Virus record (IMG/VR): IMGVR_UViG_3300044522_000126
Coordinates: 2,492-66,491 of that record
DNA: 64,000 nt
Direction: 5' to 3' (one strand)
Source: a virus
A program made the translations under genes and the position numbers. Under the pieces are notes generated by a model. The model did not search any database, was not told the DNA's origin, and was given only the letters and a program-made list of their open reading frames with translations. Shown here piece by piece: positions 33 through 31,068 of this stretch (position 1 is its first letter; each line of letters opens with the position of its first letter).

Positions 33-71
33 CGGACTTACAAATATAATAGTCAGATAATATACGTGAAA
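33..71 (+). promoter_or_regulatory. Putative phage early promoter, copy 1 (CGGACTTA-N14-AGATAATATACGTGAAA)
   Basis: Motif recurs at 2587 and 8084 with an identical 14-nt spacer, each time upstream of a + strand gene cluster. Confidence 0.75.
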
Positions 72-2586: not shown

Positions 2587-2625
2587 CGGACTTAATAATA
2601 ATATAGTTAGATAATATACGTGAAA
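2587..2625 (+). promoter_or_regulatory. Putative phage early promoter, copy 2
   Basis: CGGACTTA-ataataatatagtt-AGATAATATACGTGAAA; both boxes identical to copy 1. Confidence 0.75.
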
Positions 2626-3338: not shown

Positions 3339-3341
3339 ACA

Positions 3342-4529: not shown

Positions 4530-4532
4530 ATC

Positions 4533-5963: not shown

Positions 5964-5971
5964 CAATTTTT

Positions 5972-6002
5972 AAAGGGCCCACTGTGAAAGGTGGGTCTTT
6001 TT
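5972..6002 (+). terminator. Rho-independent terminator
   Basis: aaagggcccac-tgtgaaag-gtgggtcttt followed by T run, right after the VWA stop. Confidence 0.8.
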
Positions 6003-6016
6003 AATACCCTAATTAT

Positions 6017-6546: not shown

Positions 6547-6548
6547 TT

Positions 6549-6902: not shown

Positions 6903-7114
6903 ATTCTTTAATTAAAGAAAGAGCATCAGATAAAGCTTTTGCTACTATAAAAATGTACGAGAATCAAATTAAAGCTTTGCAAAGAGATGTTAAAAGCGGC
7001 GGTTCTGGTGGAATATCGTTAGAACAACTATTAGGTGTAGTAGATCACACTGAAATGGAGAAACTTGTATGGATCTACATAACTAGTTTAATTGAAAAAG
7101 ATAATAAATTATGA
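6854..7114 (+). CDS. Hypothetical protein
   Basis: 86-aa ORF; start uncertain. Confidence 0.55.
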   Translation: MFETTEREVRVPSKLVDSLIKERASDKAFATIKMYENQIKALQRDVKSGGSGGISLEQLLGVVDHTEMEKLVWIYITSLIEKDNKL

Positions 7115-7584
7115 GTAAATATATAAATAGATACAAAGACACTTATACTTTTACAGAAAACAAAGACCATGACATATTATGGAAAGGTAATTTTGAATGG
7201 TGTAGGTTTGGTATGCCTAATGACTATAATAGAGCTTATAAAGCTTATTGTGAAGACATGGGTAACTTATTAACAATGGAAGAATTTAAAACCGCTGTTC
7301 ATAAGTATGACGATATTAAAAAAGAATACATTTTAACAGATAAATATGTTAGAATGGTTGATTCTTTACGAGATGAAATAGACATGATAGATCCTTCTGG
7401 TGGTCCTTTTATATCTAGAGGCATGTCTCTTGATTCATTTGGCTTTAAAGACTATATTGTAAAAGATTTTAAAGTTATGAAATCAGGTTACAAAATAATT
7501 ACTGAGAAATGTCCGATGTGTAATCTCGCAGGTGCTATACACAAGATAAGTTGTTCAACGCAGAAAATACAAATAAACTTATGA
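7111..7584 (+). CDS. Hypothetical protein
   Basis: 157-aa ORF with IDPSGGPFI motif. Confidence 0.75.
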   Translation: MSKYINRYKDTYTFTENKDHDILWKGNFEWCRFGMPNDYNRAYKAYCEDMGNLLTMEEFKTAVHKYDDIKKEYILTDKYVRMVDSLRDEIDMIDPSGGPFISRGMSLDSFGFKDYIVKDFKVMKSGYKIITEKCPMCNLAGAIHKISCSTQKIQINL

Positions 7585-7844
7585 CAAAAGAAAATGTAAT
7601 ACAGATTTTACCTAAATGGTTTAATGGTGAAGTCTATGAAAATGGTGGAGAGGTTACAAATCCATATAGTGGATGTAGTTGTTATTTATCTCCAAAGGAA
7701 TTAAGTATGTATGATTTTATAAAAGGATCTGAGATGCTGTTAGAACAAGGTATACGTAGTGAAAATTTAACTAATTTATTCTACGAAGGTTTATGGTGGT
7801 TTAAAGATAACAATATAGAAGCCTATATAATACTACTTGATTAA
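7581..7844 (+). CDS. Hypothetical protein
   Basis: ATGA-coupled start at 7581 (track start 7551). Confidence 0.7.
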   Translation: MTKENVIQILPKWFNGEVYENGGEVTNPYSGCSCYLSPKELSMYDFIKGSEMLLEQGIRSENLTNLFYEGLWWFKDNNIEAYIILLD

Positions 7845-7949
7845 CTATGATTAAAAACTTTTTATTAAAATTAAAGTTTATTTTATACTGCATGACAGTA
7901 ATAGTATTAAGTTTTGTTTTAAAAATGTGTGAATTAAAAAAGTTTTAAC

Positions 7950-8111
7950 ATGAGTAGAACAGTTAAACAAGCTTATAGAAAATCAAGAGTATTTGATAGA
8001 TCTTGCAGAAATAATGGAAAATGTTCTTATTGTAGAGGTAATAGATTACACAGTAATAATGTAAGAGACCAACAATCACTACACGGACTTAGAAGTTTAA
8101 ACAATAGATAA
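7950..8111 (+). CDS. Small basic Cys protein (DRSCRNNGKCSYCRGNR)
   Basis: Manual translation, 53 aa; SCRN.G.C.YC..NR phage motif. Confidence 0.6.
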   Translation: MSRTVKQAYRKSRVFDRSCRNNGKCSYCRGNRLHSNNVRDQQSLHGLRSLNNR

Positions 8112-8113
8112 TA
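8084..8113 (+). promoter_or_regulatory. Putative phage early promoter, copy 3
   Basis: CGGACTTA-gaagtttaaacaat-AGATAATA with the same 14-nt spacer; preceded by tacac as in copy 2. Confidence 0.65.
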
Positions 8114-8135
8114 ATTAAAACAAAACAAATGAAAC

Positions 8136-8411
8136 ATGACTAAAAAAGAAATGGACGCGTTAGCAGACGTTATTGTAGGTAAATTAATTGAAAAACAAAA
8201 AGAGTTAGATAAAGAGTTTATCCAAGATCTCGAAGCAAGTAATGTACCAATTGAAGTGCACGAACGTATAAGTAATAAAGATAAAATCATAATGGAAATC
8301 ACGCGATTAGTCGTTATGTTAGATGCTTTTGAAAAAGCTGAAGAATATGAAAAAGCTGATACTTGTGCAAAACGAATTAGTTATTTAAAATCTGAAATGT
8401 CTAAACTTTAA
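8136..8411 (+). CDS. Hypothetical protein with C-terminal UVR-like coiled coil
   Basis: AFEKAEEYEKADTCAKRI resembles the UvrB/UvrC motif. Confidence 0.65.
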   Translation: MTKKEMDALADVIVGKLIEKQKELDKEFIQDLEASNVPIEVHERISNKDKIIMEITRLVVMLDAFEKAEEYEKADTCAKRISYLKSEMSKL

Positions 8412-8564
8412 TGTAAATAGCCGTTTAAGTATGGGAAAAAACAGAGAATTATTTGAAAAAATAAAAAATGAAACAGAGAATGAGGATACTGATGAAGAAG
8501 AATATTATATTAATAATATGTAGAACTGTGACAATAGGGTCTATATATAAAAAGTAAGGGGCTA

Positions 8565-9182
8565 ATGTCACACGATAGAAATATAAAGTATCTAACAGAT
8601 AGACGAATAATATATAGACGGTTTCCTATTAATGACCAACCTACTCAGGTATTTGAATGGGGTAATTATTATGAAACTGGTACTGTTGAATGTTATGAGT
8701 TGTTTAGGAGTAAGGCCAAAATAAATACATATAGAAGTCTAAAATGGCATCTATTAGTTATATGGTATCTTAATCCTCAGTTAGATCAAGATAAATTAGA
8801 AAGTTTATGTAGATTTATCTGTGACAAGTCTAACAACTTTATTACATTTAATATTTCTGATCAAGTTTTAAAGACTATTTTATATGAGGTAAGTATGCAT
8901 GATTTAGAATCTCCTCCTAAAAATAAAATACGTAAGATAATATTTAAAGATTACTGTCAGTTAACTACTGAACAGAAACTACAGATAGTAGGTCAAATTA
9001 TCGGTCGTAAAAAATTATCAGAGTCTGAGATTTACGATGCCATGCTATACACTCATGATGATGGCGACAAAATTACTGTTGAGAAACTAGCGAAGTATCT
9101 AGGTTGTTCTACAAGAACAGTTTATAGAAACATGGGTAATGAACTTAAAAAAGAAAAAGAATTATTAAACCAAGAATTATGA
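8565..9182 (+). CDS. DNA-binding protein with C-terminal HTH
   Basis: ITVEKLAKYLGCSTRTVYRNM helix-turn-helix. Confidence 0.75.
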   Translation: MSHDRNIKYLTDRRIIYRRFPINDQPTQVFEWGNYYETGTVECYELFRSKAKINTYRSLKWHLLVIWYLNPQLDQDKLESLCRFICDKSNNFITFNISDQVLKTILYEVSMHDLESPPKNKIRKIIFKDYCQLTTEQKLQIVGQIIGRKKLSESEIYDAMLYTHDDGDKITVEKLAKYLGCSTRTVYRNMGNELKKEKELLNQEL

Positions 9183-9781
9183 AACTTAAATATTTTATAA
9201 AAGATTTAGATTTTTTAAAGGCATACAACTCGCCATTTAAACCTCCAAGTATAAAATTATATGTTGGTAAAGTAGCAATTGGTACTCCTTATTTTCTACC
9301 TAGACGATGGATTAAAGGAACTCCTAATTTAGCAATTGCAGCAGCTGATAAATATGTAAAAGAACGAATAGAATTTAATAAACGAAATCCTGAATATGCT
9401 AAACCTATAAAACCTTTTAGAGAAATATACGAAGATAAACTACGATGTTCTTATGCAATGCCTAAAAGATTTGGTTTCAACTATACTGGTTTAGGTTGGA
9501 AAACTAAATGGGAACCAGATAATTATAGATTTGAATGGTCTCCTGTTTTTTCTTTTGTATTTTTTAAATGGCAAATAGCAATTGAATTTATTGCTCCTGA
9601 GTGTCATCATTATTGGGAATGTTGGTTATATTATACTAGAGAAACAGATAAAACTAAAAGTACAAAAGAAAGATTAGAACAAGCTAGAAAAAAGTATCCA
9701 TGTAAATGGACAAGACATGTTAACGGTGAAGAAGAGATGATTTGCTATTGGGATTCAATTTTAAAAAATAAGTGGTTATGA
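9179..9781 (+). CDS. Hypothetical protein
   Basis: 200-aa aromatic-rich ORF coupled to neighbours. Confidence 0.7.
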   Translation: MKLKYFIKDLDFLKAYNSPFKPPSIKLYVGKVAIGTPYFLPRRWIKGTPNLAIAAADKYVKERIEFNKRNPEYAKPIKPFREIYEDKLRCSYAMPKRFGFNYTGLGWKTKWEPDNYRFEWSPVFSFVFFKWQIAIEFIAPECHHYWECWLYYTRETDKTKSTKERLEQARKKYPCKWTRHVNGEEEMICYWDSILKNKWL

Positions 9782-10563
9782 AAAAATACAATTTAGAAAA
9801 TTATATAAGATATAAAGATGATGTTAAAAAAGTTATTAGTAATATAGAAAAAAGAAATTACAATGAATATTCAAGAGATGAATTAATAGCCACATTTTTA
9901 CCTTTAGTAGAAAATATATCTAGAAAGTTCTCAACAGCGGATCAAGCATCTGGTATTATGGATATTACAGATATAATTCAAGAAGGTAGTATTGGTTTAA
10001 TATTTGCCATTGACAAAATAGAGTGGGATAAAATAACTGAATCTAAAGACCAAGAACAAACAATCAAATCGTTTCTGTCAAAACGTATAAAAGGTTCAAT
10101 AAGACGCGCGATAGACATTAATAAAGGATCTATACGTATTCCTGAACATAAATTAAACGAAATAAGAAAAGGTTCAGATGAAGATCATAAACTACTTGCT
10201 TTATTCTTTAGTAGTATGGTTGGAAGTTTAGACGCTTTCTTCGATAATAGTGATGCTACAGATTACGACTTAGAAGCTGAATACACTCAGAAAATGTTTG
10301 AAGACAAATCAGAGGAATATAACATAGATATTCTAAATGCTTTTATACTTAGTTTATTTAAAAAGTATTTAACAACTCCTGAGTCTGAAGTTTTAAGATT
10401 AAGTTATGGTTTAGATTGTGACAAACATTCTGCAAATGAAATAGCTGACATACTTGGATTTAAAGGTCCAAGCGCGTACGTTAGAGTTTCTGAATTAAAA
10501 AAGTTAGCAGTAACTAAACTAATTAGTAAATGTAATCCAAAGCAACTACTTGAGTATGTTTAA
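9772..10563 (+). CDS. RNA polymerase sigma70-family factor
   Basis: Region 2 LPLVENISRKF...DIIQEGSIGLIFAIDK...RIKGSIRRAID..IRIP; region 4 LTTPESEVLRLSYGL...SANEIADILG. Confidence 0.9.
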   Translation: MVMKKYNLENYIRYKDDVKKVISNIEKRNYNEYSRDELIATFLPLVENISRKFSTADQASGIMDITDIIQEGSIGLIFAIDKIEWDKITESKDQEQTIKSFLSKRIKGSIRRAIDINKGSIRIPEHKLNEIRKGSDEDHKLLALFFSSMVGSLDAFFDNSDATDYDLEAEYTQKMFEDKSEEYNIDILNAFILSLFKKYLTTPESEVLRLSYGLDCDKHSANEIADILGFKGPSAYVRVSELKKLAVTKLISKCNPKQLLEYV

Positions 10564-10567
10564 GTTA

Positions 10568-10607
10568 TGACAAAAAATGTCAACTAAAATAGGTTAAATA
10601 GTTGACA
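10568..10607. promoter_or_regulatory. Overlapping inverted repeats (operator-like or hairpin)
   Basis: tgtcaacta-N12-tagttgaca (10578-10607) and tgaca-N5-tgtca (10568-10582). Confidence 0.45.
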
Positions 10608-20368: not shown

Positions 20369-23300
20369 TTATTTTAATTCTGGCATAACCAATCCTCCGC
20401 CACCTTTTAACTCAGGTATTTTTAAAGTTCCTTGTTGATTCATTTGAACAGGTGCTGATTGACCTTCTCCTAAATTCCATTCAGTATAACCCATTACGAA
20501 AGCTACTCTTTGCCAAGTTTGGTATTCGTCATCTAAAGCGTTTTTAATATTCTGCATTTTTTGATACATTCTATCGGCAGGTAAATTAAAAGTAAGAGAT
20601 GTTAAAGATGTCAAAGCTTCTATCGCATACGTATTTGACAAACTAAATCCTTCATATTCTATTTCAGCAGCGTTATATTCTACTGCTTTATAAGCCTTAA
20701 TAAAACTTCTTAGTTTTATACCTATAGAAGGCGAAATGTTTGCTAATTCTGCCGCGACATCTCCATAACCTTTAGGATCACCGCTTTTTTCGTACCATTT
20801 TACTAAAGCATTTTTAACGGTGGTTAACATTACACCTGTCAAACCAGTACCTCTTATTAAAGTATCCATAGCTCCGTTTAGCATTCTCCATTTAGCTTGA
20901 TCGTATTTACCTTCTTTTTGTTCTTCATCATCGTCAAAAAGTAAGGCGAATAAAGCATTTTGTAAAAAGTTAAACATTAAGTTCTGAATTGTAGAATAAT
21001 ATACTATTTTAGCTACATTATTTGGAACACTTCCTCTTCCTTTCGCTATATCAATAAAAGATTTTTTTATTATCCTAGAATACTGAAATGGTGTATTCAT
21101 AAACGATAGAAGCAACCTCCCTTTTGTACTAGCTTGATTAGCTGATATTTTAGAAACGTCGGCAGATTGTTGTGATATTTCTGATGTTTCATAGAAATCA
21201 CGCATTGTAATCTTTTCAGCCTCATCTTGTGAATAACCTTGTTTTAAATAAGTGTTAATTCTATTTCTGTAAAAACCTGCACCACCAAACGCTATCGCAA
21301 AACTATCCATAACTCTTGTAGGAGTAAATCCTTGTTTTAAGAACCAGTAATTAGCAGCTTTGAACTTATCCATTAGTGTATTGTTTCTAGGATCATTCAT
21401 TAACTGAGCAAACTCTGCTTCTGCAACATCATTCATTAAACCAGATCTCCTGTCTTTAAGATAATTAGAATTCCATATTGTTAAGAAATCTTTAGTGTAT
21501 TGTTTTATATTAAGTAACGCTAACCCAGCTTTTACAACGTTGTTATCTCCAGTATTTATATAGTTGATACCACCGATGACTTGTAACAAAGCAGATCTAG
21601 TATTCCAGAACATCGTAACAGCGGTTGATCCATTTATCCAATTTAAAAGACCATCAGAAGCGCCTTCAGCTCTGTTACTACCAGTTTTCATTCTGTATAA
21701 CATGTTTTCTAGAGCTTTAGAATATTTTCTACCATATAAAGCTTCTATCTTGCTCATGTTTTGTTTAGAGAAGATTTTATCAACATTAGTTTGCCAAACG
21801 CCTAAATACTTAGTTCTGTTTGACTTCGATATAACATTGTTAATATCTCCAACTACACTACCAAATCCCCAGTTATGATCTGGTTCAGTATAACCATTAG
21901 GTTGTTTAGATAATAAAGAAACGTCTTGAGCAAAATCTCTTAATCGTTTATCTTTTCTAACTAACTCTTTTAAATGCCATAGATCTTTTTTATCTAATCC
22001 AGGCACTTCGTAACCAGCACTATTCCAAAGATAAACCCTAACAGCTTGATCTACTAAGTAACCACCGTAACCAGAATCTTGCTTAAGTTCTTTACTTATA
22101 CCTTTATACTTTTTATTTATTAAGTCTTTCCAGTCTTTGTACATAGTCTGTCTAGACTTCATAACGTTTAACATGGCTTCACTATAAGGTTTTAGTAAAT
22201 TATCAACTAAGAAATCCATTTGGTCTTGACCTTGTTGACCTTTACCAGAACCTAAAGTGTATAGCAAACCTAAGAAATCCTCATCTTCAGGTGGCAAATA
22301 TATGTCGTACTTACCTATGTTCTTACCTAAGTTCTTAGCAGTCTCAGGAGAGAAAGTTTCTGAAGCTTCTACACCTTTATTTTGCTCTATGATTTCGTTC
22401 ATTCCTTGCTCAAGGTTATTATTTAACCTCATTCTTTCTTGAACTTTATCTGACTTAAAGTCTAATGCATCTAAAACTTGTTTTGTCAAAGGTCCTTCTG
22501 CATTCTTTTTAACTCTAAATTCAAAATCATTATATCCTTCTGCTACTTTTTGAATTATAAAATAAGCAGTTGATTTGTCTGACATTTTAGATCTACTAGG
22601 TACTTTAAAGGTTATTTTACCGCCTTGAACTTCTTGTAATTGTCTTTTTAATTCTTTTTTCTTTACTTTATCAGTTTCTTTTTCTATTTTTTGATTTAAC
22701 TTTTCAGTCTCTTCTGTTTCAGCATAAGTTGCTGTTTTTGCTCTTTCAATAGCGTTGTCAATGTCTCTAGCAACTAACCATTGTTTACTAAATGGAAGTC
22801 CTTCTAAGAAGTTTGATAGTTTACCGTTTTCTTCTTCAGCTAAACTAAACTTTATTATGTCTGGTTTGTTACTAATTTTTTTTGTTATAGAAGTTTTAGG
22901 CATGTTTCCAAACACAATAACGGGTGTTCCTTCTATTACACCGTCTTTATCATATATATCTTCTTGACCAATATCCCAACTTAGATTTCCTTTTATAGTG
23001 GCCCAATCAATCCAATCATTTAGTATTTCGTTGGCTTGGCTTGTTTTTATTATATCTCTTAAATCTGCTCTAAAAATTCCATTATTATTGTTTTTTATTT
23101 CTTCTACAGCTTTTGGATATTTTTTCTTTATTATTTCGTGAAAATTACCAACGTCGTTAATGTCTGGTATTATTATCGCGTTAGACAAATCTTTAACTTT
23201 AGTTTCGTACATAACACCATCACCCCAGTCACCCACGGTATCATCATCAACATAAAACCACAACGCTTTCATATCGTCGTCTCTAAAAGTTCTATCTAAT

Positions 23301-26300
23301 GATTCTGACCCAGAATGATATAAAGTATGGTTTTTTAGTTTGTCTTGAAACTCTATATATTTTTTAGAGCTAGTTAAACCTTTAAATTTTTCTTTAAACT
23401 CTTTATTTTCTTTAGTTTCTGCTAAACTAAACTTAACAATATCACTTTTACCTTTAGACATGTCTTTTAGAACCTCTGCTCTTAACACATCGTCTTTTAA
23501 ACTATTATACAAGTTTACATTTCTATCTGCTACCCTGTCCAAGAAGTCTGGTTGTCTAAGAAGTCTTCTAGCTTCTTGCAAAACCATAACATCTCCAAAC
23601 AATTCCATTAAAGCGGTTCTTCTATCAAAATAAGCTGTTGGAACTAATCCTTTACCAGTTTTTTCATTAAGTTCTGGTTCTTCTAGTTTAGCAATTTGTT
23701 TACTAGCATTATCACCTCCATATATCTTAAGAATACGAGTTGCTTCTTCTACACCATAATATGATTGCAAGAATTTAGTTCTAGTTATATCACCTATTTT
23801 TCTTAAGTTTCCTTTTTCGTCAAATTCTTTTAATCTAGGTGGTAGTTTTTTAGAAGCATAACTTGATTCGTTAGTAACTGGATCTACCGGGTGATTTATT
23901 ACGTCGTAAAGTAATTGCCATTCGCGATACATTAACGATTCTATTTCTGGACCATTTTTAAAAGTCATTCTCCTTGCCATTGTTTTTGACATGGTAGAAA
24001 GTCTTTCTTTAAAATTTCTATATTCTAGAGTTTCAATGTTTGGAGATCTTAATATTTCACGAGCAACCTCATCAGTAATGATTTTAGCAGGTGTATCTTG
24101 AATAGAAAGAGCTTCAAATGTATTTACTGTCATTCCTGTAGAAAGATCATAAGATTTGAAAGATTTTAAACTTTTAAGTTCTTCTTTTTCTTCGTATGTT
24201 AAGTCTTTTTTATTCTGTAATTCTAATCCTCTTTCTAGATCTTTTAATTGTCTTTTTAATTCTACTATTTTAGCTGGATCAGTTTCTGTTCTTAGTTTTT
24301 TATTAGCAGCAATAGACATGTCTGATACTTCTGTAACAAAGTTACTACCAAATGGTACAGTTTCAATATCTATAGGTTTACCTTGTTCGTCTACGAAATT
24401 AAACACTGGATCACTAAGTAATACAGCTAGTCTACTTTGCTCCTCTTCAAAGTCTTGTTCTGCTTCATACACAGAATCACCTTCGTCAGCTAAATAACTA
24501 GAATCACCACCAAAACCATCTACAATAGTAGATTCTTTAAACATTTCTCCTTCGATGTCTTCCGTAAACTTTTGTGTTGTAACGTTTCCAGTTTTAAGAG
24601 CATCTTTCATCTTATTGCTAAGTTGAGAATTTATCCAAGCATTAAGGTCGTCGTTTTCTTTTACAATACCTTTTTTACCTTGGTAACCTTTTTCGTCTTG
24701 CGCTTGTACTTTGTCTTTGAATTCTTTACTATTAGGATCTAATCCTTTTGATTCTAACTCTTGTTTGTATTCTTCTCTTTTAGCAAGAAACTCTTTGTTA
24801 AAGTTTCTAACATGAGGTATCATAGCTATTTGTGTTTCACTTATGAAATCATACTCACTAAAATCAGGTAGATTAAAATAACCTAAACCTTTTGCTTTTC
24901 CTTTTATTATATATTCATATTCAGTAAGAATATCGTACAACGTAGTTTTTCTATCGCTGTTTATATCTTTACTCCAAGTATCTTTATTATAGGTTTTATT
25001 TATATCTTTCTTAATATCTTCTGAAGATTTTCTATCACCTAAAGAGAATTTAGGTCCTGATGTTGCTGCTTGTGACCGCACTACATTTCCACCGATTTCT
25101 TTTGACAATGCTTCTTTGTTTATATTAGCGCCTTTTGTACCCATTTTAGTAAAGGCTTTACCCCATTTACCTGATTTAGCACTTGCATTGTAATCTTTTA
25201 TAAAATTATAAACATCTTTACCAGAGTCAAACTTTATATCTCTAATGCCTAAATATTGCAAAACACGTCTAATAGTATCGCCAAGTTTTGTAAACGTACC
25301 TTCATTATAAGTAATATATCCAAGACGTAAAGCATCAGAATATAAAGTCATCACTTCCTCCCATCTATTACCTTCAGACTTAGCAACATCAGCATCATGT
25401 GCTTCTTGAGTTTTCTCTCCTGCTTCAAGTTCTTTTAAACTTTCTACTTTTTGTTGTCTAGATCTATCAGCATAAAGATTTAATCTTTCAATAAATTTGT
25501 CTGGAGTTACTCTTTCATCAGATCCTTTTTCTCTAAGAGCTTTATCAAGTTTTATCAATTCGCCACCTAAAGAAGCTCCTAATAACATTTGAGCTTGTGG
25601 ACTATTCTTTATAGTTTTTTGAAGTAAACCATGTAGGAATTCGTGTTGTTGTATACCTGAATCACCAAGTTTAAATGCTACTTCTTCATTTTGTAATATA
25701 ACTTGAAAACCTTCTGGTATTAAATCTGGATCTTTAGAATATTTCTTTAAAACATCTGAAGTAAGAGCAAATCCACCTTCTTGAGACCAATCATCCGCAA
25801 CGTCTTCTGGAACGTTTAATTCATTAACAAGATATGTTTTTAAGTCTTCAGAAGTAGAAAAGTTTTTCATTTCGATGTCTTTTACAACACCTTTTTTAAT
25901 AGCTGCTTCTATACTTTTATTTTCCAAATCCATTTGGTCTTTAAAATATATTTTAGCAATGTTTTCTCTTATACCGTCTATTTTTTCATCTATTTGTGGA
26001 TGAAAAGCTTTATCTGTAGTTTCTTTCTCGTCTTGAAGTTTTGTAACTTTGTCTAACTCCCTCATTATAGGCATCGCACCGTCAGCAGATACATTTTTAG
26101 GTACTTTATTTACATTGTTAGCATAAATATCTACATCTTTCTTTAAGTTATCTGCTTGTTCTGCTGTAAACACTTCTTTAGTTACTAAACCATCTATGAT
26201 CTTAGTAAACTCTTTTTTATTTTTAGCTAAAGTACTAAGAGAAGTAAGGTTGTCTGTCGCTTGGTCTCCAGCATGGAAGTTAGGTAGTTTTGCTTTTGAT

Positions 26301-28471
26301 ATTAAACCAGAAGAAATAAATGAAAGTATAGACGTGTTCATGAAATCATCACCGCTCATTACTTCGTTCATAATCTTTTTACCAGCGTCTTTATTAGTCA
26401 TCATATTGACACCAATCTCTCCGCCTTGCTGTATGTTTTCTTGAACAACTTCTTTACCACCTTCTTCAGCAAATTCAACTAGATTCCTAGGTGTATTTTT
26501 TATTATATCATCAATATAGTTTACAAACCCAGTTTTACCTGTTTTAGTATATTGCTCTATAGCTTTTTTAATTATGTTTTTAGAACCAAATAAATTCTCA
26601 ACTAATTTCGTTTGTGGATTTATAACACCGGTAGTTCCGTATAACACTGCCATTCTTTGTCCAGCAGCACTAGCTAATTCAAAAGCATCTTTGTCGTTTA
26701 TACCGTTATCTCTAGCCGCTTTTAAAGTGTCTTCATATCCTTGAGCATAACCCATAGTTCCTTGAGCTATCATGGAATATCCAGTAGCTCTGTCTAAAGG
26801 TACTTTTCTTAATAGTTTTGAAGAGTCGTTTAATAATGAGGTAAATCCACTTGCCGGTTTTACCACATTTGATGCGTGTCTTATTTCTCCAGCAATAGTT
26901 CCTAATTTACCAACTCCACGTGTGATAGCGGCTTGTAATAACATATCTGCCATAACGCCTGAAGTTTGAACAGCAGCTCCTTGAGTGCTGAATGTCCAAT
27001 CTGAAGGTCCATATTTTGCTTCTTCTACTAGTTTTTTCTGTAATGTATCGTTAAATAAATCTGTTACACGTATCTTAGCCTCTGCGTCATATATTTGTCC
27101 TTTAGAGTCTACTATGTATTTAGTCCCATCATAGTTAACTGTCTTGCCAGATACGTACGCGATGCCTCTATCGTCTCTTCTAATAAACTTATTTTCTTCA
27201 TCTAACATTCTAATACCTTCGGCGGTACCTGTCATTCCTAGTGCTTCGTAACCAGAAGCAGTCATTTGAGCAGTTCTATCTATCACAGCGCTCCAACCTG
27301 CTCTACCAATCTTTTCAGCAGTATCCCAAGAGAAGAAATCTGTTCCTCCTTTTTTAGACTCTTCGTATAATTTAGCGTTTTCTTTGTCTTTGTTTTTTAG
27401 TTTTTTAGTTATTGTTGGAAAATAGTTTTCAACATATTTAGCCATACCATTAGGGTCAAATATATCGTTATTTACTATTTCTTTTTTATCTCTAACTCCT
27501 TGTATTATTTCTAATTCTTGGTTTAAGTCTTGTCTATTAACATCACGAGATTTCATTTCGTCCATATATGTTAATAACATTTTCTTTCTCGCTAATTCTC
27601 TAGCAAGACCTATATCATATCCTCCAAAACTTCTACCATCTCCTGTAAATAGACCTTCTGCTTCTTTCTTTTTAAAATCGTCTTTATATCCTTTTTTATT
27701 TAAGTAGCCATCAAAGTCTTGTGGGTTTATACCAAAAGCTTCTAGTTCTTTTGATTTATAATTTCTTTCTATAAAGTCATCTTCAACTTGCTCTTCTTCT
27801 ACTGGATTTAAAAACTGTTGGTTTTTTGAAGAATAATATAGATAAGGATGTATTAAATCAGAATCTGTTTCTCTAATTTTTTCTTTTAACTTTGCTACCT
27901 TAAATTTAGTGTCATAACCAGCTTCTCCAGTTATTGGATTGTCAGCAAAGTTTTCAACGAAATCTTTCATATCATTTTTTGACCCAATTGATTTACCTTT
28001 TATTTTTTGCGCAATTCTTTGTCCAGGAAGTTTAACTTTTTCTTCACTAACAAGGTCAAATTTTATTCTTTTATTAAAGTCTTTGTCAACTGCAGGGTTT
28101 AATAGTATTTCAAAATCTTTTAAATCTCTATAGTTTTTTTCTTGAGCGTCAATAGGACTACCGTACATGTCTTTAACATCGGTAGTTGATCTAGGAGTTG
28201 CAGAAGGAGGAGGTAACATTCCTCTTTTCTGCATTGTTTCAAGATCATTTTCTGCAGGTAATCTATATTTTTTCGGTTCCAACGAACCATTTTCCGAACT
28301 GGAATCCGTACTTAGTGCCTGATTCTTTTTTGGCGCTACAGTTGCACTCTTTGCAACGCCTTTTTGCTTTTTTGCTCCAGTGTTTTTTGATAAAAAACTA
28401 ATCTTTTCAAAATCAGAAAAATTAGATATGTCTACTTGTGATCCGTCTGATAAAATATATATTTCTTCCAT
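20369..28471 (-). CDS. Giant (2700 aa) internal/ejected virion polyvalent protein
   Basis: Last gene of the virion operon after two smaller internal proteins; HEFLH zincin motif, sigma-2-like segment, LYHSG ART-like segment, hydrophobic C-terminal region. Confidence 0.8.
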   Translation of the reverse strand: MEEIYILSDGSQVDISNFSDFEKISFLSKNTGAKKQKGVAKSATVAPKKNQALSTDSSSENGSLEPKKYRLPAENDLETMQKRGMLPPPSATPRSTTDVKDMYGSPIDAQEKNYRDLKDFEILLNPAVDKDFNKRIKFDLVSEEKVKLPGQRIAQKIKGKSIGSKNDMKDFVENFADNPITGEAGYDTKFKVAKLKEKIRETDSDLIHPYLYYSSKNQQFLNPVEEEQVEDDFIERNYKSKELEAFGINPQDFDGYLNKKGYKDDFKKKEAEGLFTGDGRSFGGYDIGLARELARKKMLLTYMDEMKSRDVNRQDLNQELEIIQGVRDKKEIVNNDIFDPNGMAKYVENYFPTITKKLKNKDKENAKLYEESKKGGTDFFSWDTAEKIGRAGWSAVIDRTAQMTASGYEALGMTGTAEGIRMLDEENKFIRRDDRGIAYVSGKTVNYDGTKYIVDSKGQIYDAEAKIRVTDLFNDTLQKKLVEEAKYGPSDWTFSTQGAAVQTSGVMADMLLQAAITRGVGKLGTIAGEIRHASNVVKPASGFTSLLNDSSKLLRKVPLDRATGYSMIAQGTMGYAQGYEDTLKAARDNGINDKDAFELASAAGQRMAVLYGTTGVINPQTKLVENLFGSKNIIKKAIEQYTKTGKTGFVNYIDDIIKNTPRNLVEFAEEGGKEVVQENIQQGGEIGVNMMTNKDAGKKIMNEVMSGDDFMNTSILSFISSGLISKAKLPNFHAGDQATDNLTSLSTLAKNKKEFTKIIDGLVTKEVFTAEQADNLKKDVDIYANNVNKVPKNVSADGAMPIMRELDKVTKLQDEKETTDKAFHPQIDEKIDGIRENIAKIYFKDQMDLENKSIEAAIKKGVVKDIEMKNFSTSEDLKTYLVNELNVPEDVADDWSQEGGFALTSDVLKKYSKDPDLIPEGFQVILQNEEVAFKLGDSGIQQHEFLHGLLQKTIKNSPQAQMLLGASLGGELIKLDKALREKGSDERVTPDKFIERLNLYADRSRQQKVESLKELEAGEKTQEAHDADVAKSEGNRWEEVMTLYSDALRLGYITYNEGTFTKLGDTIRRVLQYLGIRDIKFDSGKDVYNFIKDYNASAKSGKWGKAFTKMGTKGANINKEALSKEIGGNVVRSQAATSGPKFSLGDRKSSEDIKKDINKTYNKDTWSKDINSDRKTTLYDILTEYEYIIKGKAKGLGYFNLPDFSEYDFISETQIAMIPHVRNFNKEFLAKREEYKQELESKGLDPNSKEFKDKVQAQDEKGYQGKKGIVKENDDLNAWINSQLSNKMKDALKTGNVTTQKFTEDIEGEMFKESTIVDGFGGDSSYLADEGDSVYEAEQDFEEEQSRLAVLLSDPVFNFVDEQGKPIDIETVPFGSNFVTEVSDMSIAANKKLRTETDPAKIVELKRQLKDLERGLELQNKKDLTYEEKEELKSLKSFKSYDLSTGMTVNTFEALSIQDTPAKIITDEVAREILRSPNIETLEYRNFKERLSTMSKTMARRMTFKNGPEIESLMYREWQLLYDVINHPVDPVTNESSYASKKLPPRLKEFDEKGNLRKIGDITRTKFLQSYYGVEEATRILKIYGGDNASKQIAKLEEPELNEKTGKGLVPTAYFDRRTALMELFGDVMVLQEARRLLRQPDFLDRVADRNVNLYNSLKDDVLRAEVLKDMSKGKSDIVKFSLAETKENKEFKEKFKGLTSSKKYIEFQDKLKNHTLYHSGSESLDRTFRDDDMKALWFYVDDDTVGDWGDGVMYETKVKDLSNAIIIPDINDVGNFHEIIKKKYPKAVEEIKNNNNGIFRADLRDIIKTSQANEILNDWIDWATIKGNLSWDIGQEDIYDKDGVIEGTPVIVFGNMPKTSITKKISNKPDIIKFSLAEEENGKLSNFLEGLPFSKQWLVARDIDNAIERAKTATYAETEETEKLNQKIEKETDKVKKKELKRQLQEVQGGKITFKVPSRSKMSDKSTAYFIIQKVAEGYNDFEFRVKKNAEGPLTKQVLDALDFKSDKVQERMRLNNNLEQGMNEIIEQNKGVEASETFSPETAKNLGKNIGKYDIYLPPEDEDFLGLLYTLGSGKGQQGQDQMDFLVDNLLKPYSEAMLNVMKSRQTMYKDWKDLINKKYKGISKELKQDSGYGGYLVDQAVRVYLWNSAGYEVPGLDKKDLWHLKELVRKDKRLRDFAQDVSLLSKQPNGYTEPDHNWGFGSVVGDINNVISKSNRTKYLGVWQTNVDKIFSKQNMSKIEALYGRKYSKALENMLYRMKTGSNRAEGASDGLLNWINGSTAVTMFWNTRSALLQVIGGINYINTGDNNVVKAGLALLNIKQYTKDFLTIWNSNYLKDRRSGLMNDVAEAEFAQLMNDPRNNTLMDKFKAANYWFLKQGFTPTRVMDSFAIAFGGAGFYRNRINTYLKQGYSQDEAEKITMRDFYETSEISQQSADVSKISANQASTKGRLLLSFMNTPFQYSRIIKKSFIDIAKGRGSVPNNVAKIVYYSTIQNLMFNFLQNALFALLFDDDEEQKEGKYDQAKWRMLNGAMDTLIRGTGLTGVMLTTVKNALVKWYEKSGDPKGYGDVAAELANISPSIGIKLRSFIKAYKAVEYNAAEIEYEGFSLSNTYAIEALTSLTSLTFNLPADRMYQKMQNIKNALDDEYQTWQRVAFVMGYTEWNLGEGQSAPVQMNQQGTLKIPELKGGGGLVMPELK

Positions 28472-28476: not shown

Positions 28477-30312
28477 TTAATTAGATTTTGTTGCTCTTGC
28501 GTAATATTGTTCTAGTGTTTCGTTTTCTTTCCTAGGATTAGATTCTGTCCAGTCTTTTAATTTAGCATCTTTCAACTTACCTTGCAACATTTTCTTTTCT
28601 CCAGCGTCTGTTGTTTGATCTAATGCTAATTTTATTCTATCAACAGCTTTGTTAATGTTATAATCTTTTACGGCTTTATATGCACCTTCTCCTTCTTTAC
28701 CATATAAATAAGAATTACCAAATCTAGACGTAAATGCTTTATCAATATCGCCTTCTACTTTTCCTTCTTTATATGCTTCTTCTATAGTCATATTGGTATT
28801 GACAGGACCTCTACTTGTTTGTTTTACAAAAGGTTGTGCTTTATATAGTTTAAATAACTCTTCTTTTGTTATATACTTATCAGCTTTTCCAGAAAGTTTA
28901 TTTAAGTTTTTAGCTAATGTAGATCTAGTAGCATAGTTCTTTTGACCAACGCTTAAGTCTTCACCTTGTCTAGGGGTATAACCTGATATTATTTCATTGA
29001 AATAGTCTTCTTGATATGTAGTAGGTGGTTGTTTACCTAGTCCACCTCCTTCTAATGAAGCAGCGGTAGGTTTTTCTTTCTTTTCAACCTTAGAATCTAC
29101 ACTCCAATAAACTTTTTCACCGTTTTCTTCTGTGTATTTTGAATTATCGGTTATTTTACTAAAAGAATATTCTGTTAATAAATCAGTTAACATGGTTTTT
29201 TGTTCTTCTACTGTTCTATTTGTATAAGTTTTTTTACCATTTACGTCAACACCAGTTTCTTTTCTTAAAAACTCATCTTCGTAAAATCCAGGTTCTTTTT
29301 TTAATGTATATTCTAATAATGAACTTAAACTTTGTTGTTTGTCTGCCTTTAAATAACCAGTAGCTTTTATTTCAGCTGCTTCTTTTATCTTTGATTTAAT
29401 AGCATCTGTTTGTAATCTTTGACCTTCTACTATTTGATAAACGTCTTTAATTCCTCTTCCAGAACTACCTTTTTGCGGAGGTAAATCTACTGTCTCTCTT
29501 TTTTGTTGTAAAAGTCCTTCAAGTAATTTGCCTTTATTATCTAACACTTCTTTTTGGGAAATCTTTATAAAATCATCTAAACCTTCAACTTTACTTAAAA
29601 ACCCACCAGTTCCACCTGAATCTGCTTTTAAATATGATGATGAGTTTATAGTAATAGGTTTAAAGTTTTCTGCTTCACCTTTTACTCTACCTGTAAATTC
29701 AATATTGAAACCAGTTCCAGTTCCATCTTCTTTTACATTCATTGTTGTATTTTCATATAAACCATCTAAACCACCTGTTATTTCTAAAGCCGCTCTTCTT
29801 TGTTTTATTTGTTCTTTACTTCCATTTATAGCCCAACCTCCAGGAACTCCAATGCTTATTGCTGAAGATTCTCTCCATGTAGCACTTTCCATTGCTATTC
29901 GTTTACTTACTTCAGAAGCGTTATTCATAAAAACATCAGCATCTGATATTAGTTTTAAATATCCTTTTCTTTTATCTTTATCTGACTCTTGAGTTAAAGC
30001 AATTTGTGCATCGGCAGCATCTTGTATTTTTTGTTGAACCATAGTGGTTATTTGTTCGTCAACTCCACCACCAACTTTATCATGTTTCTTTTTCCAATCA
30101 GAAAGTACCGAGTTGTAATGTAAGTCTGTTTTGTTTTTTTGATCTTGTAGTTTTTGGATAGTAAGTCTATCTTCTTTTTCTCTTTCTCTAATTCTTTCAC
30201 CACGAAGCATGAAGCCTTGAGCTAGTGCTTTAGAACCACTTAATATACCAGCCGTGATAGCGTTATAACCTTCACCAGGACTTATTATAGGAGGATTTTC
30301 ATAATATCCCAT
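28477..30312 (-). CDS. Probable internal virion (ejection) protein
   Basis: 611 aa, helical; lies between pilot-like protein and giant protein. Confidence 0.6.
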   Translation of the reverse strand: MGYYENPPIISPGEGYNAITAGILSGSKALAQGFMLRGERIREREKEDRLTIQKLQDQKNKTDLHYNSVLSDWKKKHDKVGGGVDEQITTMVQQKIQDAADAQIALTQESDKDKRKGYLKLISDADVFMNNASEVSKRIAMESATWRESSAISIGVPGGWAINGSKEQIKQRRAALEITGGLDGLYENTTMNVKEDGTGTGFNIEFTGRVKGEAENFKPITINSSSYLKADSGGTGGFLSKVEGLDDFIKISQKEVLDNKGKLLEGLLQQKRETVDLPPQKGSSGRGIKDVYQIVEGQRLQTDAIKSKIKEAAEIKATGYLKADKQQSLSSLLEYTLKKEPGFYEDEFLRKETGVDVNGKKTYTNRTVEEQKTMLTDLLTEYSFSKITDNSKYTEENGEKVYWSVDSKVEKKEKPTAASLEGGGLGKQPPTTYQEDYFNEIISGYTPRQGEDLSVGQKNYATRSTLAKNLNKLSGKADKYITKEELFKLYKAQPFVKQTSRGPVNTNMTIEEAYKEGKVEGDIDKAFTSRFGNSYLYGKEGEGAYKAVKDYNINKAVDRIKLALDQTTDAGEKKMLQGKLKDAKLKDWTESNPRKENETLEQYYARATKSN

Positions 30313-30339: not shown

Positions 30340-31068
30340 TTAACTACCGGCTATTAATCCACTAGCTATATTACCCACACCACTGGCTATACCGCCATAA
30401 GCTGCTGTTTGAGCATTTTTAGCTGCTACTTGATTACTCTTAGATTGCGCTTCTTGTCCTGACAATCTATTTAATTTAGCTATATCTCTAGATTCTTGTT
30501 CTCCATATTTAAACTGAATTCCAGCAGTTTCTGCAGCTTGCATTCTTTGCGCTTCGCTTAATTGAACTCCTTGAACTCTTTGTTGTTCAGCCATTTTAGC
30601 CTGTTGCAACTCAGCATTTCCTTGAGCTTTTAATTTTTCGTTTTGCGCTTCTTGCATTTCTATACTAGCAGAAACTCCTTTTTTACTTTGTAAAGCAGCT
30701 TGTGCCAATGCAGTAGCACCTCCAGCACTTGCTCCTGTACTTCTAAGAGTATCTAAAGTGTTTGCTAAAGATATATCAGCTTCTTCTATTTGCATGTCTG
30801 CAGCTTGCGTAGAAACTCCTAAACTAGCATAAGGATTACTTAAAGTACCACTTAAATCTTTAGCTAAACCACTAAGGTTAGTTACGTTAGCGTATGGGTT
30901 AGGTATCGATTGTCTTTTTTGTTCTAATTGATTTATTTCCCAAGCTTTTCTTTCAGCTTCGTTTCTAAAACCTTTAGCGTCTTGCTTTGCTTGATTAGCC
31001 GCAACCAATCCTCCACCGATCGTGGCCACCGCGGCTACACCCGCCGCTACTGCTGTTATTACTGCCAT
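30340..31068 (-). CDS. Probable DNA pilot/ejection protein
   Basis: Ala/Gly-rich hydrophobic termini with a Gln-rich coiled coil, as in podovirus ejection proteins. Confidence 0.65.
   Translation of the reverse strand: MAVITAVAAGVAAVATIGGGLVAANQAKQDAKGFRNEAERKAWEINQLEQKRQSIPNPYANVTNLSGLAKDLSGTLSNPYASLGVSTQAADMQIEEADISLANTLDTLRSTGASAGGATALAQAALQSKKGVSASIEMQEAQNEKLKAQGNAELQQAKMAEQQRVQGVQLSEAQRMQAAETAGIQFKYGEQESRDIAKLNRLSGQEAQSKSNQVAAKNAQTAAYGGIASGVGNIASGLIAGS

Follow-up and report, generated by a model that had tools for sequence, protein, structure and literature searches.

A divergent sigma-70 domain 2-like module within a giant, putatively virion-packaged phage protein

Judged by sequence comparison and fold modelling together, residues ~1170-1300 of a giant protein from an uncultured marine flavobacterial phage make up a genuine though divergent sigma-70 domain 2, spanning regions 2.1-2.4, which sits inside a single 2700-residue open frame and is not separately encoded as a dissociable subunit (Table 1). 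We infer, from the position of the gene among particle genes and from an analogue in Cellulophaga phage phi18:3, that the giant protein is packaged in the virion and ejected with the DNA, in which case the phage may deliver, together with its genome, a handle on the RNA polymerase of the host. Phages are known to take over transcription by injecting a whole RNA polymerase (N4-like, crAss-like and phiKZ-like phages), by injecting polymerase-modifying enzymes, as T4 does with Alt, or by means of sigma factors made after infection. A sigma domain in probable capsid cargo would, if true, represent a fourth way, in which only a specificity handle is brought in and the host enzyme is used from the first second. 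The module also frames a testable question, namely which factor recognises the early promoters, unlike those of the host, that cluster at the leading end of these genomes. No published description of the module was found in a literature search that covered the main texts of openly accessible papers. The window referred to below is the whole 64,000-nucleotide stretch of viral DNA analysed.

Table 1. Features of the giant protein, the stand-alone sigma factor and the early promoter-like repeats, in window coordinates
Feature	Position	Strand	Basis or remark
Giant ORF (P0001), 2700 aa	20369..28471	minus	stop-free frame; closes the minus-strand block of virion genes
Zincin-type HExxH motif (HEFLH), aa 943-947	25631..25645	minus	only HExxH in the protein
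E1039, candidate third metal ligand	25355..25357	minus	invariant in 18/18; ligand role inferred
KFSL linker 1, aa 1141-1144	25040..25051	minus	directly ahead of the sigma-like module
Sigma-70 domain 2-like module, aa 1170-1300	24572..24964	minus	AF2 model, Pfam on relatives, hhalign, ESM Atlas
Region 2.1-like helix pair, aa 1173-1196	24884..24955	minus	model helices 24-35 and 37-47
Region 2.2-like helix, aa 1202-1225, PDFSEYDFISETQIAMIPHVRNFN	24797..24868	minus	conservation and alignment
Charged insert between regions 2.2 and 2.3, 48 aa	24653..24796	minus	modelled as two helices plus a hairpin
Region 2.3/2.4-like helix, aa 1274-1296, DDLNAWINSQLSNKMKDALKTGN	24584..24652	minus	conservation and alignment
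Acidic linker and 350-aa mostly helical domain, aa 1326-1682	23426..24496	minus	conserved only in the close family
KFSL linker 2, aa 1680-1683	23423..23434	minus	VKFS in 7/8 aligned close relatives and in the A5 consensus
KFSL linker 3, aa 1874-1877	22841..22852	minus	third KFSL copy
C-terminal domain, ~730 aa, with hydrophobic stretches	20381..22576	minus	most conserved part of the giant protein
Stand-alone sigma-70-family factor, 263 aa, regions 2 and 4	9772..10563	plus	phrog_351 at 9.5e-16
Early promoter-like repeat, CGGACTT-N16-GATAAT(ATA)	33..61	plus	motif count
Early promoter-like repeat, second window copy	2587..2615	plus	motif count
Early promoter-like repeat	8084..8112	plus	same strand as the stand-alone sigma gene, 1.7 kb ahead of it

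A sequence-only reading of this DNA had pointed to a sigma region 2-like module at 24594-24940, just after the first KFSL motif. That span corresponds to residues 1178-1293, the residues it quoted are present in the translation, the first KFSL stands at residue 1141, and the module proved real, with Pfam searches on relatives, a fold model, hhalign and the ESM Atlas in agreement. Among module homologues that lack the 48-residue insert, 18 of 25 match Pfam Sigma70_r2, with a best E of 1.2e-6 and over profile positions about 20-67 of 71. Scans of whole records gave matches to the same family in seven of ten giant ORFs, one of which passes the curated cut-off (24.3 bits vs 24), and most of the Pfam Sigma70_r2 scores on relatives fall short of it. 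Insert-bearing copies match Sigma70_r2 in 2 of 18 cases and DotZ in 5 of 18, and neither Pfam nor PHROGs found a sigma family on the whole giant protein of this phage, whose own copy of the module is tied to Sigma70_r2 through family alignments (A1 and A3).

Other kinds of comparison gave the same family and register. Against PDB sequences, the family profile retrieved three chains in all, two of them sigma factors, 8b3z, which is the N-terminal domain of SigE (E 0.15), and 6pfv, which is WhiG (E 2.1), both in the register of regions 2.2-2.4; a profile of the insert-bearing copies retrieved no sigma factor from the PDB. Alignment by hhalign with domain 2 of seven Flavobacteriaceae sigma factors yielded the canonical register with probabilities of 7-44% (P 0.00023 with alignment A1, 0.0025 with the family of 122 sequences and 0.0047 with A2), the family score being reached by none of 30 column-shuffled controls, and the same method found no match to the family of the phage's own stand-alone sigma (probability under 1%). 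When the ESM Atlas was searched with a protein language model, 27 of the 30 nearest named clusters carried PF04542, with a score of 0.95, shared features that were low (122-139 of 256) and one third of shuffled proteins also reaching ten of ten same-family matches.

Conservation within the module is consistent with this assignment. Polar residues are near-constant in both the 2.2-like and the 2.3/2.4-like helices (18 giants at 23-66% identity), and selection probably acts on both sigma-2 surfaces. In the 2.2-like helix, P1202, N1223 and F1224 are invariant and D1208, H1220 and R1222 nearly so among the 18 full-length relatives; it aligns with region 2.2 of SigE 8b3z and, at P 0.00023, with that of a host sigma resembling RpoD, and region 2.2 of sigma factors is the stretch that docks on the β′ clamp helices. 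The 2.3/2.4-like helix, with L1276, N1281, S1282 and K1287 invariant and W1279, I1280, L1284 and N1286 nearly invariant in the same 18, aligns with regions 2.3-2.4 of SigE 8b3z and of host sigmas, and W1279, the sole aromatic residue in the set that would melt and read the −10 element, aligns with the region 2.3 aromatic of 8b3z. Positions 35-50 of alignment A2 align in hhalign with the region 2.1 part of host sigmas. The charged insert, whose helices lie at positions 77-92 and 100-112 of the model, is present in the close family and missing from P0112 and most of L043-L071. It adjoins the docking helix and could alter or block docking.

A sigma domain 2 fold is predicted for this stretch. The AlphaFold2 model of the module from this phage has a mean pLDDT of 82.4, and comparison with 48,161 chains (VIA) placed sigma-factor entries in all 23 of the best matches, at Z 7.5-5.6, where values below 8 are middling for helical folds and 5.6-7.5 is often reached by helical models by chance. 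The top match, 7d7d chain F, which we take to be T4 gp55 (rmsd 3.3, 96 residues aligned), is tied within one Z unit with other sigma factors, and structural alignments of the module with working sigma factors give about 10-18% identity. Foldseek returned no match at E ≤ 0.001; about 23 of its 50 rows are sigma entries by their titles, all with E above 1.

The module belongs to a protein of mosaic build. Upstream of its gene on the same strand lie the genes for TerL, the portal, the major capsid protein and a muzzle-like protein, and the crAss muzzle C-terminal domain is present in the tail module of the phage. Relatives over residues 1140-1700 number 112, at 42-79% identity; across the giant proteins related to it, length ranges from 2100 to 4238 residues, with a conserved core and a variable middle, and the module is found in 198 clusters at 50% identity, mostly giant phage proteins. 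The module-bearing proteins come from uncultured, mostly marine phages, whose kin infect Flavobacteriaceae. When 50,697 phage records were searched by tblastn, once with the entire protein and once with the C-terminal domain, no cultured phage with the giant protein was found, and in MW202828.1 and phi18:3 the same gene slot is occupied by unrelated giant proteins. In the aligned sequences a zincin-like HExxH region, a KFSL linker and the sigma-2 module follow each other in conserved order, after which come lineage-specific cassettes between further KFSL linkers and then the conserved C-terminal domain, and this domain order recurs in about 200 sequence clusters. Such a mosaic with exchangeable domains is as expected of polyvalent phage proteins.

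Of the putative peptidase residues, H943, E944 and H947 are nearly invariant in the 18 relatives (HExxH in 17 of 18 alignment rows), and Pfam reported no peptidase or LPD family on the giant protein or on the 18 full-length relatives. Linker 1 is retained as K[FPML][SA][LM] in close relatives, with KFS-like forms in some distant ones; linkers 2 and 3 flank a 194-residue cassette missing from several relatives. The 350-residue domain that follows the module (alignment A5, 22 sequences; AF2 pLDDT 79.3) was not found in L043-L071 by blastp, and among the variable cassettes Zeta_toxin/AAA_33 occurs in 2 of 18 relatives. The C-terminal domain keeps 36-43% identity with distant giants, with many invariant columns; in the ESM Atlas the clusters closest to it hold viral proteins some 700 residues long, and the nearest that bear Pfam families carry LPD39 (28% of members) and LPD38 (63%). 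As to packaging, the occupant of the same slot in phi18:3, gp123 (1935 residues), which is not homologous to the giant protein, is a virion protein by MS/MS.

What the giant protein holds of a sigma factor appears to be confined to domain 2. Pfam found neither Sigma70_r3 nor Sigma70_r4 in the 18 full-length giants at E ≤ 0.1, and the 50 best fold matches of residues 1326-1682 include no sigma entry in either search. With no region 3 or 4 detected beside domain 2, the giant protein does not appear to be a complete sigma; of the injected sigma proposed earlier, the embedded region 2 homologue is supported and the complete factor is not. Equally unsupported is the suggestion that such a module by itself reads the bipartite CGGACT-N17-GATAAT, since a −35/−10 promoter is not assignable to a protein in which only domain 2 is detectable. 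The remark that no DxDxD polymerase catalytic motif is visible was accurate: D.D.D and D.DGD each have zero matches in the 2700 residues, and PDB sequence searches with the giant protein and with the 18-sequence profile matched no solved chain, polymerases included.

Docking on the host enzyme was addressed by complex prediction. The module paired with residues 180-420 of RPOC_FLAJ1 scored 0.48, against 0.28 for the best of three controls, a result graded weak; since sigma-β′ complexes have already been solved, this pass may merely reflect those structures. In calibration, 58 of 80 solved complexes attained the mark used, as did 2 of 110 mismatched pairs, and at scores of 0.60 or below 7 of the 80 solved complexes and both mismatches did so. 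The partner was modelled with a pLDDT of 69 or more, and 42% or more of the contacts were common to the runs.

Two parts of the earlier proposal that concern promoters were confirmed. The protein at 9772 is a real sigma-70-family factor, as shown by its phrog_351 match and by homologues that are named as sigma-70 family and carry PF04542 (one carries PF04545); its own match to Pfam Sigma70_r2, at 7.3e-4, is short of the cut-off. CGGACT-N17-GATAAT is a true repeat, with three copies in the window against 0.04 expected and six exact copies in the whole genome, and the plus strand of the first 10.6 kb of the genome holds eight promoter copies. In each of the four lineages examined the clustered early promoters carry the 9-nt box GATAATATA unchanged, and this box recurs with different upstream boxes in G002, G007 and G011, the upstream box being lineage-specific (CGGACTT in the lineage of this phage, CAAACTAAA or AACTCACC in others), and in four of four genomes the stand-alone sigma gene lies downstream of the promoter cluster on the same strand. 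This invariant box in the relatives' clustered early promoters, the lineage-specific upstream boxes and the sigma gene downstream are new here. A host-type Bacteroidota promoter pattern is not enriched (3 matches vs 3.5 expected), and none of the large ORFs of the phage can be recognised as an RNA polymerase. Together with the promoter cluster, these points speak for a factor needed from the very start of infection. From these sequences GATAATATA is a candidate target of the sigma-2 module. A domain 2-only module does not account for the conserved upstream box, which lies some 17 nt away from the −10 box. Module, stand-alone sigma and promoter class always occur together and are jointly absent from MW202828.1 and phi18:3, so that the comparison does not discriminate which factor reads the promoters. 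The division of labour suggested earlier, with the module serving early promoters and the stand-alone sigma middle and late ones, is a candidate scheme.

The explanation that we tentatively favour, giving it as a whole somewhat less than an even chance, runs from packaged cargo to a later handover. The giant protein would be a polyvalent cargo, packed in the capsid and leaving it with the DNA as the virion RNA polymerases of N4-like and crAss-like phages do; the zincin would cleave it at the KFSL linkers and release its modules; and the freed sigma-2 module would dock, like any sigma domain 2, on the β′ clamp helices of the host core RNA polymerase, recruiting the first polymerase molecules to the entering genome. 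There it would read a long −10-type box, for which GATAATATA is the candidate, much as the domain 2-only T4 gp55 does, until the full-length sigma of the phage, encoded downstream of the promoter cluster, took over. In a bolder form, which we think improbable, the whole fragment between KFSL linkers 1 and 2 (residues ~1145-1680) would amount to a full promoter-specificity factor of a novel design, delivered by the virion. Its sigma-2 module would dock on host core polymerase and read GATAATATA, and its lineage-specific 350-residue domain would stand in for sigma domain 4 and read the upstream box. If true, this would mean transcription from the leading genome end without host sigma and before phage protein synthesis, and the first injected sigma as opposed to an injected polymerase.

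Likeness to a sigma domain need not imply a sigma's work. PhyR offers a non-sigma role, its sigma-like domain binding an anti-sigma (PhyR/NepR), and the module could similarly be a sigma mimic with a non-polymerase partner, or could contribute to packaging or ejection, either structurally or by binding DNA ends. The low identity to working sigmas, the lack of an hhalign match to the phage's own sigma family and the large insert adjoining the docking helix would all fit, but conserved residues that track regions 2.2 and 2.3/2.4 of true sigmas in register, and the co-occurrence of the module with a second sigma and with promoters of a class specific to the phage, make such a role unlikely in our estimate.

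Quite unlikely, too, is that the module acts in the producing cell and is not injected at all, being freed by the zincin as a gp55-like late sigma or co-factor within the same cycle. A late factor encoded at the distal end of the late operon would need to activate the very operon that it belongs to, a full sigma is already encoded in the early region, no common motif was seen by eye in the late intergenic regions, and fixed fusion to the 730-residue C-terminal domain and effector cassettes better fits cargo proteins; on the other side stand the location of the giant gene within the late virion operon, the T4 late-sigma complex entry 7d7d_F as best structural match within ties, and the KFSL linkers and conserved HExxH, compatible with processing anywhere. 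A decoy that occupied the β′ clamp helices, shutting off the host or displacing its sigma without any promoter reading, is in keeping with the conserved docking helix, with the better docking score than controls (weak as it is) and with the undetected region 4. Such a decoy would have no need of the 2.3/2.4-like DNA-reading and melting helix, which is as conserved as the docking helix, and a capsid would hold few copies, far below the number of polymerases in a cell, so that this role too is quite improbable. Finally, mere chance likeness of an unrelated helical bundle is very improbable indeed, for although every single score is weak (Pfam mostly sub-cut-off, Foldseek E > 1, Z < 8, low hhalign probabilities and ESM-Atlas shared features), five methods of different kinds converge on one family and register, one relative exceeds the Pfam curated cut-off, no shuffle reaches the hhalign score, and the best structural matches are all sigma where the neighbouring helical domain, by the same procedure, gave 0 of 50.

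Among known systems, the module is close to sigma-70 domain 2 itself (PF04542; SigE 8b3z, SigR 1h3l, SigB 8x6g, sigma-28 6pmj), with which it shares predicted fold and register, an acidic/hydrophobic docking helix, and an aromatic residue plus Asn/Gln/Lys in the DNA-reading helix. Unlike the free-standing ECF and group 3 sigmas, it lies at residue ~1170 of a 2700-residue protein, carries the 48-residue insert between regions 2.2 and 2.3, has no detected region 3 or 4, and scores mostly below thresholds. T4 gp55, the near-tied top structural match (Z 7.5), is likewise domain 2 only, and the module, like it, comes from a phage and would recognise a long −10-type box with no domain to read a −35 box. 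However, gp55 is synthesised during infection as a small, free protein, its partners are gp33 and the sliding clamp gp45, and it is not known to be packaged. Free-standing phage sigmas also supply promoter specificity to the host core, their counterpart in this phage being the factor at 9772-10563; phiEco32 gp36 and its SU10 copy are complete sigmas, separately encoded and made after infection, and the SU10 protein was represented in a particle preparation by one peptide among many non-structural proteins, which is not evidence that it is packaged (PMC4281155).

The setting of the module recalls the polyvalent proteins of phages and conjugative elements; in the main text of the paper on them the word "sigma" has zero occurrences (Iyer, Burroughs, Anand, de Souza, Aravind 2017, PMC5512222). 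The giant protein resembles them in being a giant mosaic, in its zincin-type motif, its Zeta_toxin/AAA_33 cassettes and a C-terminus near LPD38/LPD39 clusters. Virion RNA polymerases of N4-like and crAss-like phages (e.g. Cellulophaga phage phi14:2 gp66) are likewise giant, encoded with particle genes, and thought to be ejected with the DNA for early transcription. The giant protein, encoded with particle genes as they are, differs from them in having no DxDGD motif: whereas they bring their own polymerase, the sigma-2 module would borrow that of the host.

The giant protein (2700 residues) is the product of the gene that closes the particle block, in a record of 66,491 bases whose completeness is rated 100% and whose G+C content is about 32%. 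Up to about 20 kb the plus strand carries replication and nucleotide genes, among them a primase-helicase, a ribonucleotide reductase, a MoxR/VWA pair (MoxR AAA+ with a weak VWA match) and a 263-residue sigma factor of the sigma-70 family, here called the stand-alone sigma. From 20.4 kb on, the minus strand carries the particle genes: large terminase, portal, major capsid protein and two muzzle-like proteins, one of which matches Pfam crAss_MUZ_C (36.4 bits, cut-off 27), followed by tail spikes and a GroEL-type chaperonin, which is full (Cpn60_TCP1, 1.8e-53). Two ORFs, of 611 and 242 residues, separate the muzzle-like genes from the giant gene and match neither Pfam nor PHROGs. The terminase shares 64% identity with its counterpart in MW202828.1 and is 46% identical to those of the Flavobacterium phages vB_FspP_elemo and 31-39% to those of Cellulophaga and Tenacibaculum phages, and the host is a member of the Flavobacteriaceae in all 87 terminase-matching records with a named host.

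Positions of features in the window, with residue numbers (aa) of the giant protein
Feature	Position	Strand	Remark
Early promoter-like copy 1	33-61	+	CGGACTT upstream box
Early promoter-like copy 2	2587-2615	+	CGGACTT upstream box
Early promoter-like copy 3	8084-8112	+	CGGACTT upstream box
MoxR AAA+ / weak VWA pair	3492-4529, 4533-5963		
Stand-alone sigma	9772-10563	+	263 aa
Giant protein	20369-28471	-	2700 aa
C-terminal domain	20381-22576	-	~730 aa, most conserved part of giant protein
KFSL linker 3	22841-22852	-	aa 1874
KFSL linker 2	23423-23434	-	aa 1680
KFSL linker 1	25040-25051	-	aa 1141
E1039, conserved glutamate	25355-25357	-	kept in 18/18 giants
HEFLH, HExxH motif	25631-25645	-	aa 943, sole HExxH in giant protein
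611-aa ORF	28477-30312		
242-aa ORF	30340-31068		
GroEL-type chaperonin	53273-54817		

Re-translation and a check of coordinates bore out the particulars of the sequence-only reading: the residues it quoted are present exactly, positions 24594-24940 corresponding to residues 1178-1293, and the catalytic motif it had reported absent is indeed absent, neither D.D.D nor D.DGD occurring in the giant protein. A crAss-type virion polymerase was ruled out, there being neither this motif nor a match with phmmer or with the profile of 18 full-length giants (A3) against the PDB. These 18 proteins, 23-66% identical to that of the window, share four fixed parts: an HExxH region, the sigma-2 module (residues ~1170-1300), a variable middle and a C-terminal domain. 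HExxH occurs in 17 of the 18, with H943, E944 and H947 near-invariant and E1039 invariant, which suggests a putative zincin-like peptidase outside all Pfam families. A linker of the KFSL type ahead of the module is kept among close relatives and a VKFS linker after residue 1680 in 7 of 8 relatives; two loci (L017 and L018) have additional linker copies flanking additional cassettes, and the 194-residue cassette between linkers 2 and 3 is missing from several relatives. Bounding modules as they do, these linkers look like cleavage or recombination joints. The variable middle holds a Zeta_toxin/AAA_33-type kinase domain in 2 of the 18 giants (best E 9.5e-11 and 1.5e-11, at loci among L009-L070), and residues 1326-1682, which follow the module, are conserved within the close family only, their AF2 model (pLDDT 79.3) having no convincing match. 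The C-terminal domain, 36-43% identical to that of distant members, matches no entry of Pfam, PHROGs or the PDB. In ESM-Atlas it falls closest to clusters of unnamed viral proteins some 700 residues long and, among named clusters, to ones carrying LPD39 (28% of members) or LPD38 (63%), a lead rather than a match. LPD38 and LPD39 are domains of large polyvalent proteins.

For the giant protein there are 112 homologues, 1501-4238 residues long, with 42-79% identity over residues 1140-1700, and in two distant ones, P0111 and P0112, the match is confined to residues ~1148-1318, a stretch that is therefore a separate domain. P0112 is without the charged segment of 48 residues that is inserted, in the window's protein, between the region 2.2-like and the 2.3/2.4-like helices, and its conserved blocks ..LIPHIRNFN and ..GWINSQLxNK.. 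nearly adjoin. A scan of IMG/VR with the alignment of insert-bearing copies (A1) found 64 loci, 29 of them (L043-L071) giant ORFs of up to 3853 residues, mostly of the insert-less form and some truncated by contig ends; HMMER with the alignment of insert-less copies (A2) against 1.84 billion representatives found 198 proteins at E <= 0.001, of which 89 pass <= 1e-10 and 15 pass <= 1e-30, and the 150 of the 198 that were listed are mostly longer than 2000 residues. Among prokaryotes (one genome each of 185,579 species) the single module match was L075 (CALKFR010000081.1), which sits on a 28.8-kb contig assigned to the MAG of an uncultured member of the Flavobacteriaceae and is probably phage DNA. 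Searches (tblastn) with the giant protein and with its C-terminal domain found no match among 50,697 deposited phage records.

That the module is truly homologous to sigma domain 2, as first read by eye, is very probable: five kinds of evidence concur, each weak or middling singly. Pfam searches of 25 insert-less copies returned Sigma70_r2 as the most frequent family, in 18 of the 25 with a best E of 1.2e-6; the first member matches positions 20-67 of the 71-position profile at 19.5 bits. In whole-record scans the giant ORF matched Sigma70_r2 in two of five records (20.5 and 11.3 bits) and, in a second set, in five of five (24.3, 20.3, 18.5, 18.1 and 15.4 bits), a single ORF, at 24.3 bits, exceeding the curated cut-off of 24. 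Pfam scarcely recognises the copies that bear the insert (Sigma70_r2 in 2 of 18, HTH_16 in 3, DotZ in 5), and it matches Sigma70_r2 in 4 of the 18 full-length giants. With the window's whole protein, Pfam gave no sigma family (a sub-threshold EAD9 match only), PHROGs no match and phmmer against PDB sequences a chance L9 match only. Of the profiles run against the PDB, A1 found two designed proteins and zero sigma factors, A3 one unrelated match, and A2 just three chains, namely a DEK domain (E 0.008), the SigE N-terminal domain 8b3z (E 0.15) and WhiG 6pfv (E 2.1), the alignment to 8b3z taking in the docking helix, the FNPE turn and the helix of region 2.3/2.4.

Predicted structure points the same way. 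The AlphaFold2 model, built on A1 headed by the window's domain (mean pLDDT 82.4), has helices at model residues 24-35, 37-47, 57-73 and 127-143, and the insert forms two further helices and a hairpin. The Foldseek comparison that the sequence-only reading had proposed was divided: against the PDB zero matches reach E <= 0.001, but about 23 of the best 50 rows bear titles of sigma or holoenzyme entries. Among 48,161 representative chains compared by VIA-align, sigma entries took all of ranks 1-23, with Z from 7.5 down to 5.6 where Z < 8 is common for helical models; 7d7d_F leads (Z 7.5, rmsd 3.3, 96 aligned), followed by pro-sigma-K, SigB, SigR, sigma-32, SigC, sigma-28 and sigma-S. The next domain, also helical and run identically as an internal control, gave a mixed list with a top Z of 6.4 and no sigma in the best 50.

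Profile-profile alignment (hhalign) set the module against host-type sigmas, the domain-2 regions of seven sigma factors (one RpoD-like, six ECF-like) from the MAG that holds L075. The 122-sequence family profile scored 21.4 (P 0.0025, 51 columns), A2 20.4 (P 0.0047) and A1 28.9 (P 0.00023, 23 columns of region 2.2 only, the match being cut by the insert), all three in the canonical register; 30 column-shuffled controls scored 6.8-18.4, none reaching 21.4. Against the stand-alone sigma or its family (A4), the same three profiles gave probabilities below 1%. In ESM-Atlas the window's own 176 residues have PF04542 in 27 of the 30 nearest named clusters (score 0.95), a measure by which one third of shuffled proteins also score ten out of ten same-family matches; these PF04542 neighbours are mostly viral proteins of 120-142 residues, sharing 122-139 of 256 features. 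Within the module, P1202, N1223, F1224, L1276, N1281, S1282 and K1287 are invariant in the 18 giants and D1208, H1220, R1222, W1279, I1280, L1284 and N1286 near-invariant. The proposal of an injected sigma thus keeps its domain 2 and loses the complete factor: a full sigma was not seen, Pfam matching neither region 3 nor region 4 in the 18 full-length giants, and no sigma appears among the best 50 fold matches of the 357 residues after the module, a negative that covers, as regards fold, the module and these 357 residues.

The early promoter motif proposed alongside it, CGGACT-N17-GATAAT, proved real, with three copies in the window against 0.04 expected. The whole record has six exact and two one-mismatch copies (positions 219-10603), all of them on the plus strand and none beyond 10.6 kb, with six falling in the first 2.6 kb; all five close relatives have 2-7 copies, reversed-pattern controls giving 0, and share with the window the upstream box CGGACTT. 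The exact pattern CGGACT-N15-19-GATAAT is absent from five of five distant complete genomes; as an argument against a link to the module this absence was dropped, since three of them retain the GATAATATA box, though the box upstream of it differs. A blind search of these three (G002, G007 and G011; L086-L097) for repeated bipartite words found GATAAT at the end of the commonest words of G002 and G007, which have 8 and 5 copies respectively, clustered on one strand and with CAAACTAAA as the upstream box; in G011 three copies form a cluster, and their upstream box is AACTCACC. In all three genomes, as in two of the three window copies, the sequence of the -10-type box is aGATAATATA; it is therefore invariant over four lineages, the upstream box being variable. 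The copies cluster at one genome end on a single strand, and in four of four genomes the gene for the stand-alone sigma is found downstream of that cluster and in the same orientation, so that the promoters are early and their reader is needed already at time zero. The Bacteroidota host-type promoter pattern is not enriched (3 matches vs 3.5 expected).

Judged by sequence, the bipartite early promoter could be read by the module or by the stand-alone sigma. The reading helix of the module is invariant and region 2.4 of the stand-alone sigma likewise conserved, and the region 4.2 helix of the latter is nearly identical across lineages whose upstream boxes differ (54-61% overall identity), though with just three or four lineages this carries little weight. 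Module, stand-alone sigma and promoter class co-occur and are jointly missing from MW202828.1 and Cellulophaga phage phi18:3, a pattern that does not test their link because the genomes are kin and share features.

The likeliest working of the module, put forward tentatively, is that it would dock on RNA polymerase at the start of infection, possibly acting in the manner of gp55, the giant protein delivering or releasing it at that moment. Concerning delivery, in the deposited relatives that are closest by terminase the same slot holds an unrelated 3859-residue protein with two HExxH motifs in MW202828.1 (L074, 741-12320) and the unrelated gp123, of 1935 residues and classed as a structural virion protein on MS/MS evidence, in phi18:3 (L084, NC_021794.1, 65632-71439); in relatives the slot thus holds giant, fast-changing virion proteins. 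By analogy, the giant protein is probably a cargo protein, slot occupancy in relatives being the whole case. The sigma of SU10 was represented by a single peptide, alongside DNA polymerase and further non-structural proteins, which does not demonstrate packaging (PMC4281155). One rival, of low probability, assigns the module a late, intracellular role; the late intergenic regions show by eye no clear common motif.

As for docking, the polar residues conserved in the 18-giant alignment map to each of the two functional helices of a sigma domain 2. A complex prediction of the module with residues 180-420 of Flavobacterium johnsoniae beta', also suggested by the sequence-only reading, came out as 'weak support', a mark that 58 of 80 solved complexes attain, as do 2 of 110 mismatched pairs: its score of 0.48 exceeds the 0.28 of the best of three controls but lies at <= 0.60, where only 7 of the 80 solved complexes and both mismatched pairs reach the mark. 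Partner pLDDT is at least 69 and runs concur in at least 42% of contacts; the prediction shows likeness more than binding because sigma-beta' complexes are already solved. Two further rivals, each also of low probability, are a decoy and a sigma mimic with another partner. That the likeness to sigma region 2 is due to chance is improbable in view of the concurring profile and fold comparisons.

Sigma domain 2, gp55-type minimal sigmas, polyvalent proteins and injected polymerases are already known. Their combination here, a sigma domain 2 in a giant that is probably cargo, is not described in the searchable literature, supplements excepted, and 'sigma' is used 0 times in the main text of PMC5512222. 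According to that text, zincin-like peptidases are proposed to cut polyvalent proteins either inside the head or once they have been injected (PMC5512222). The giant protein has the same build as these polyvalent proteins (Iyer et al., 2017; PMC5512222).
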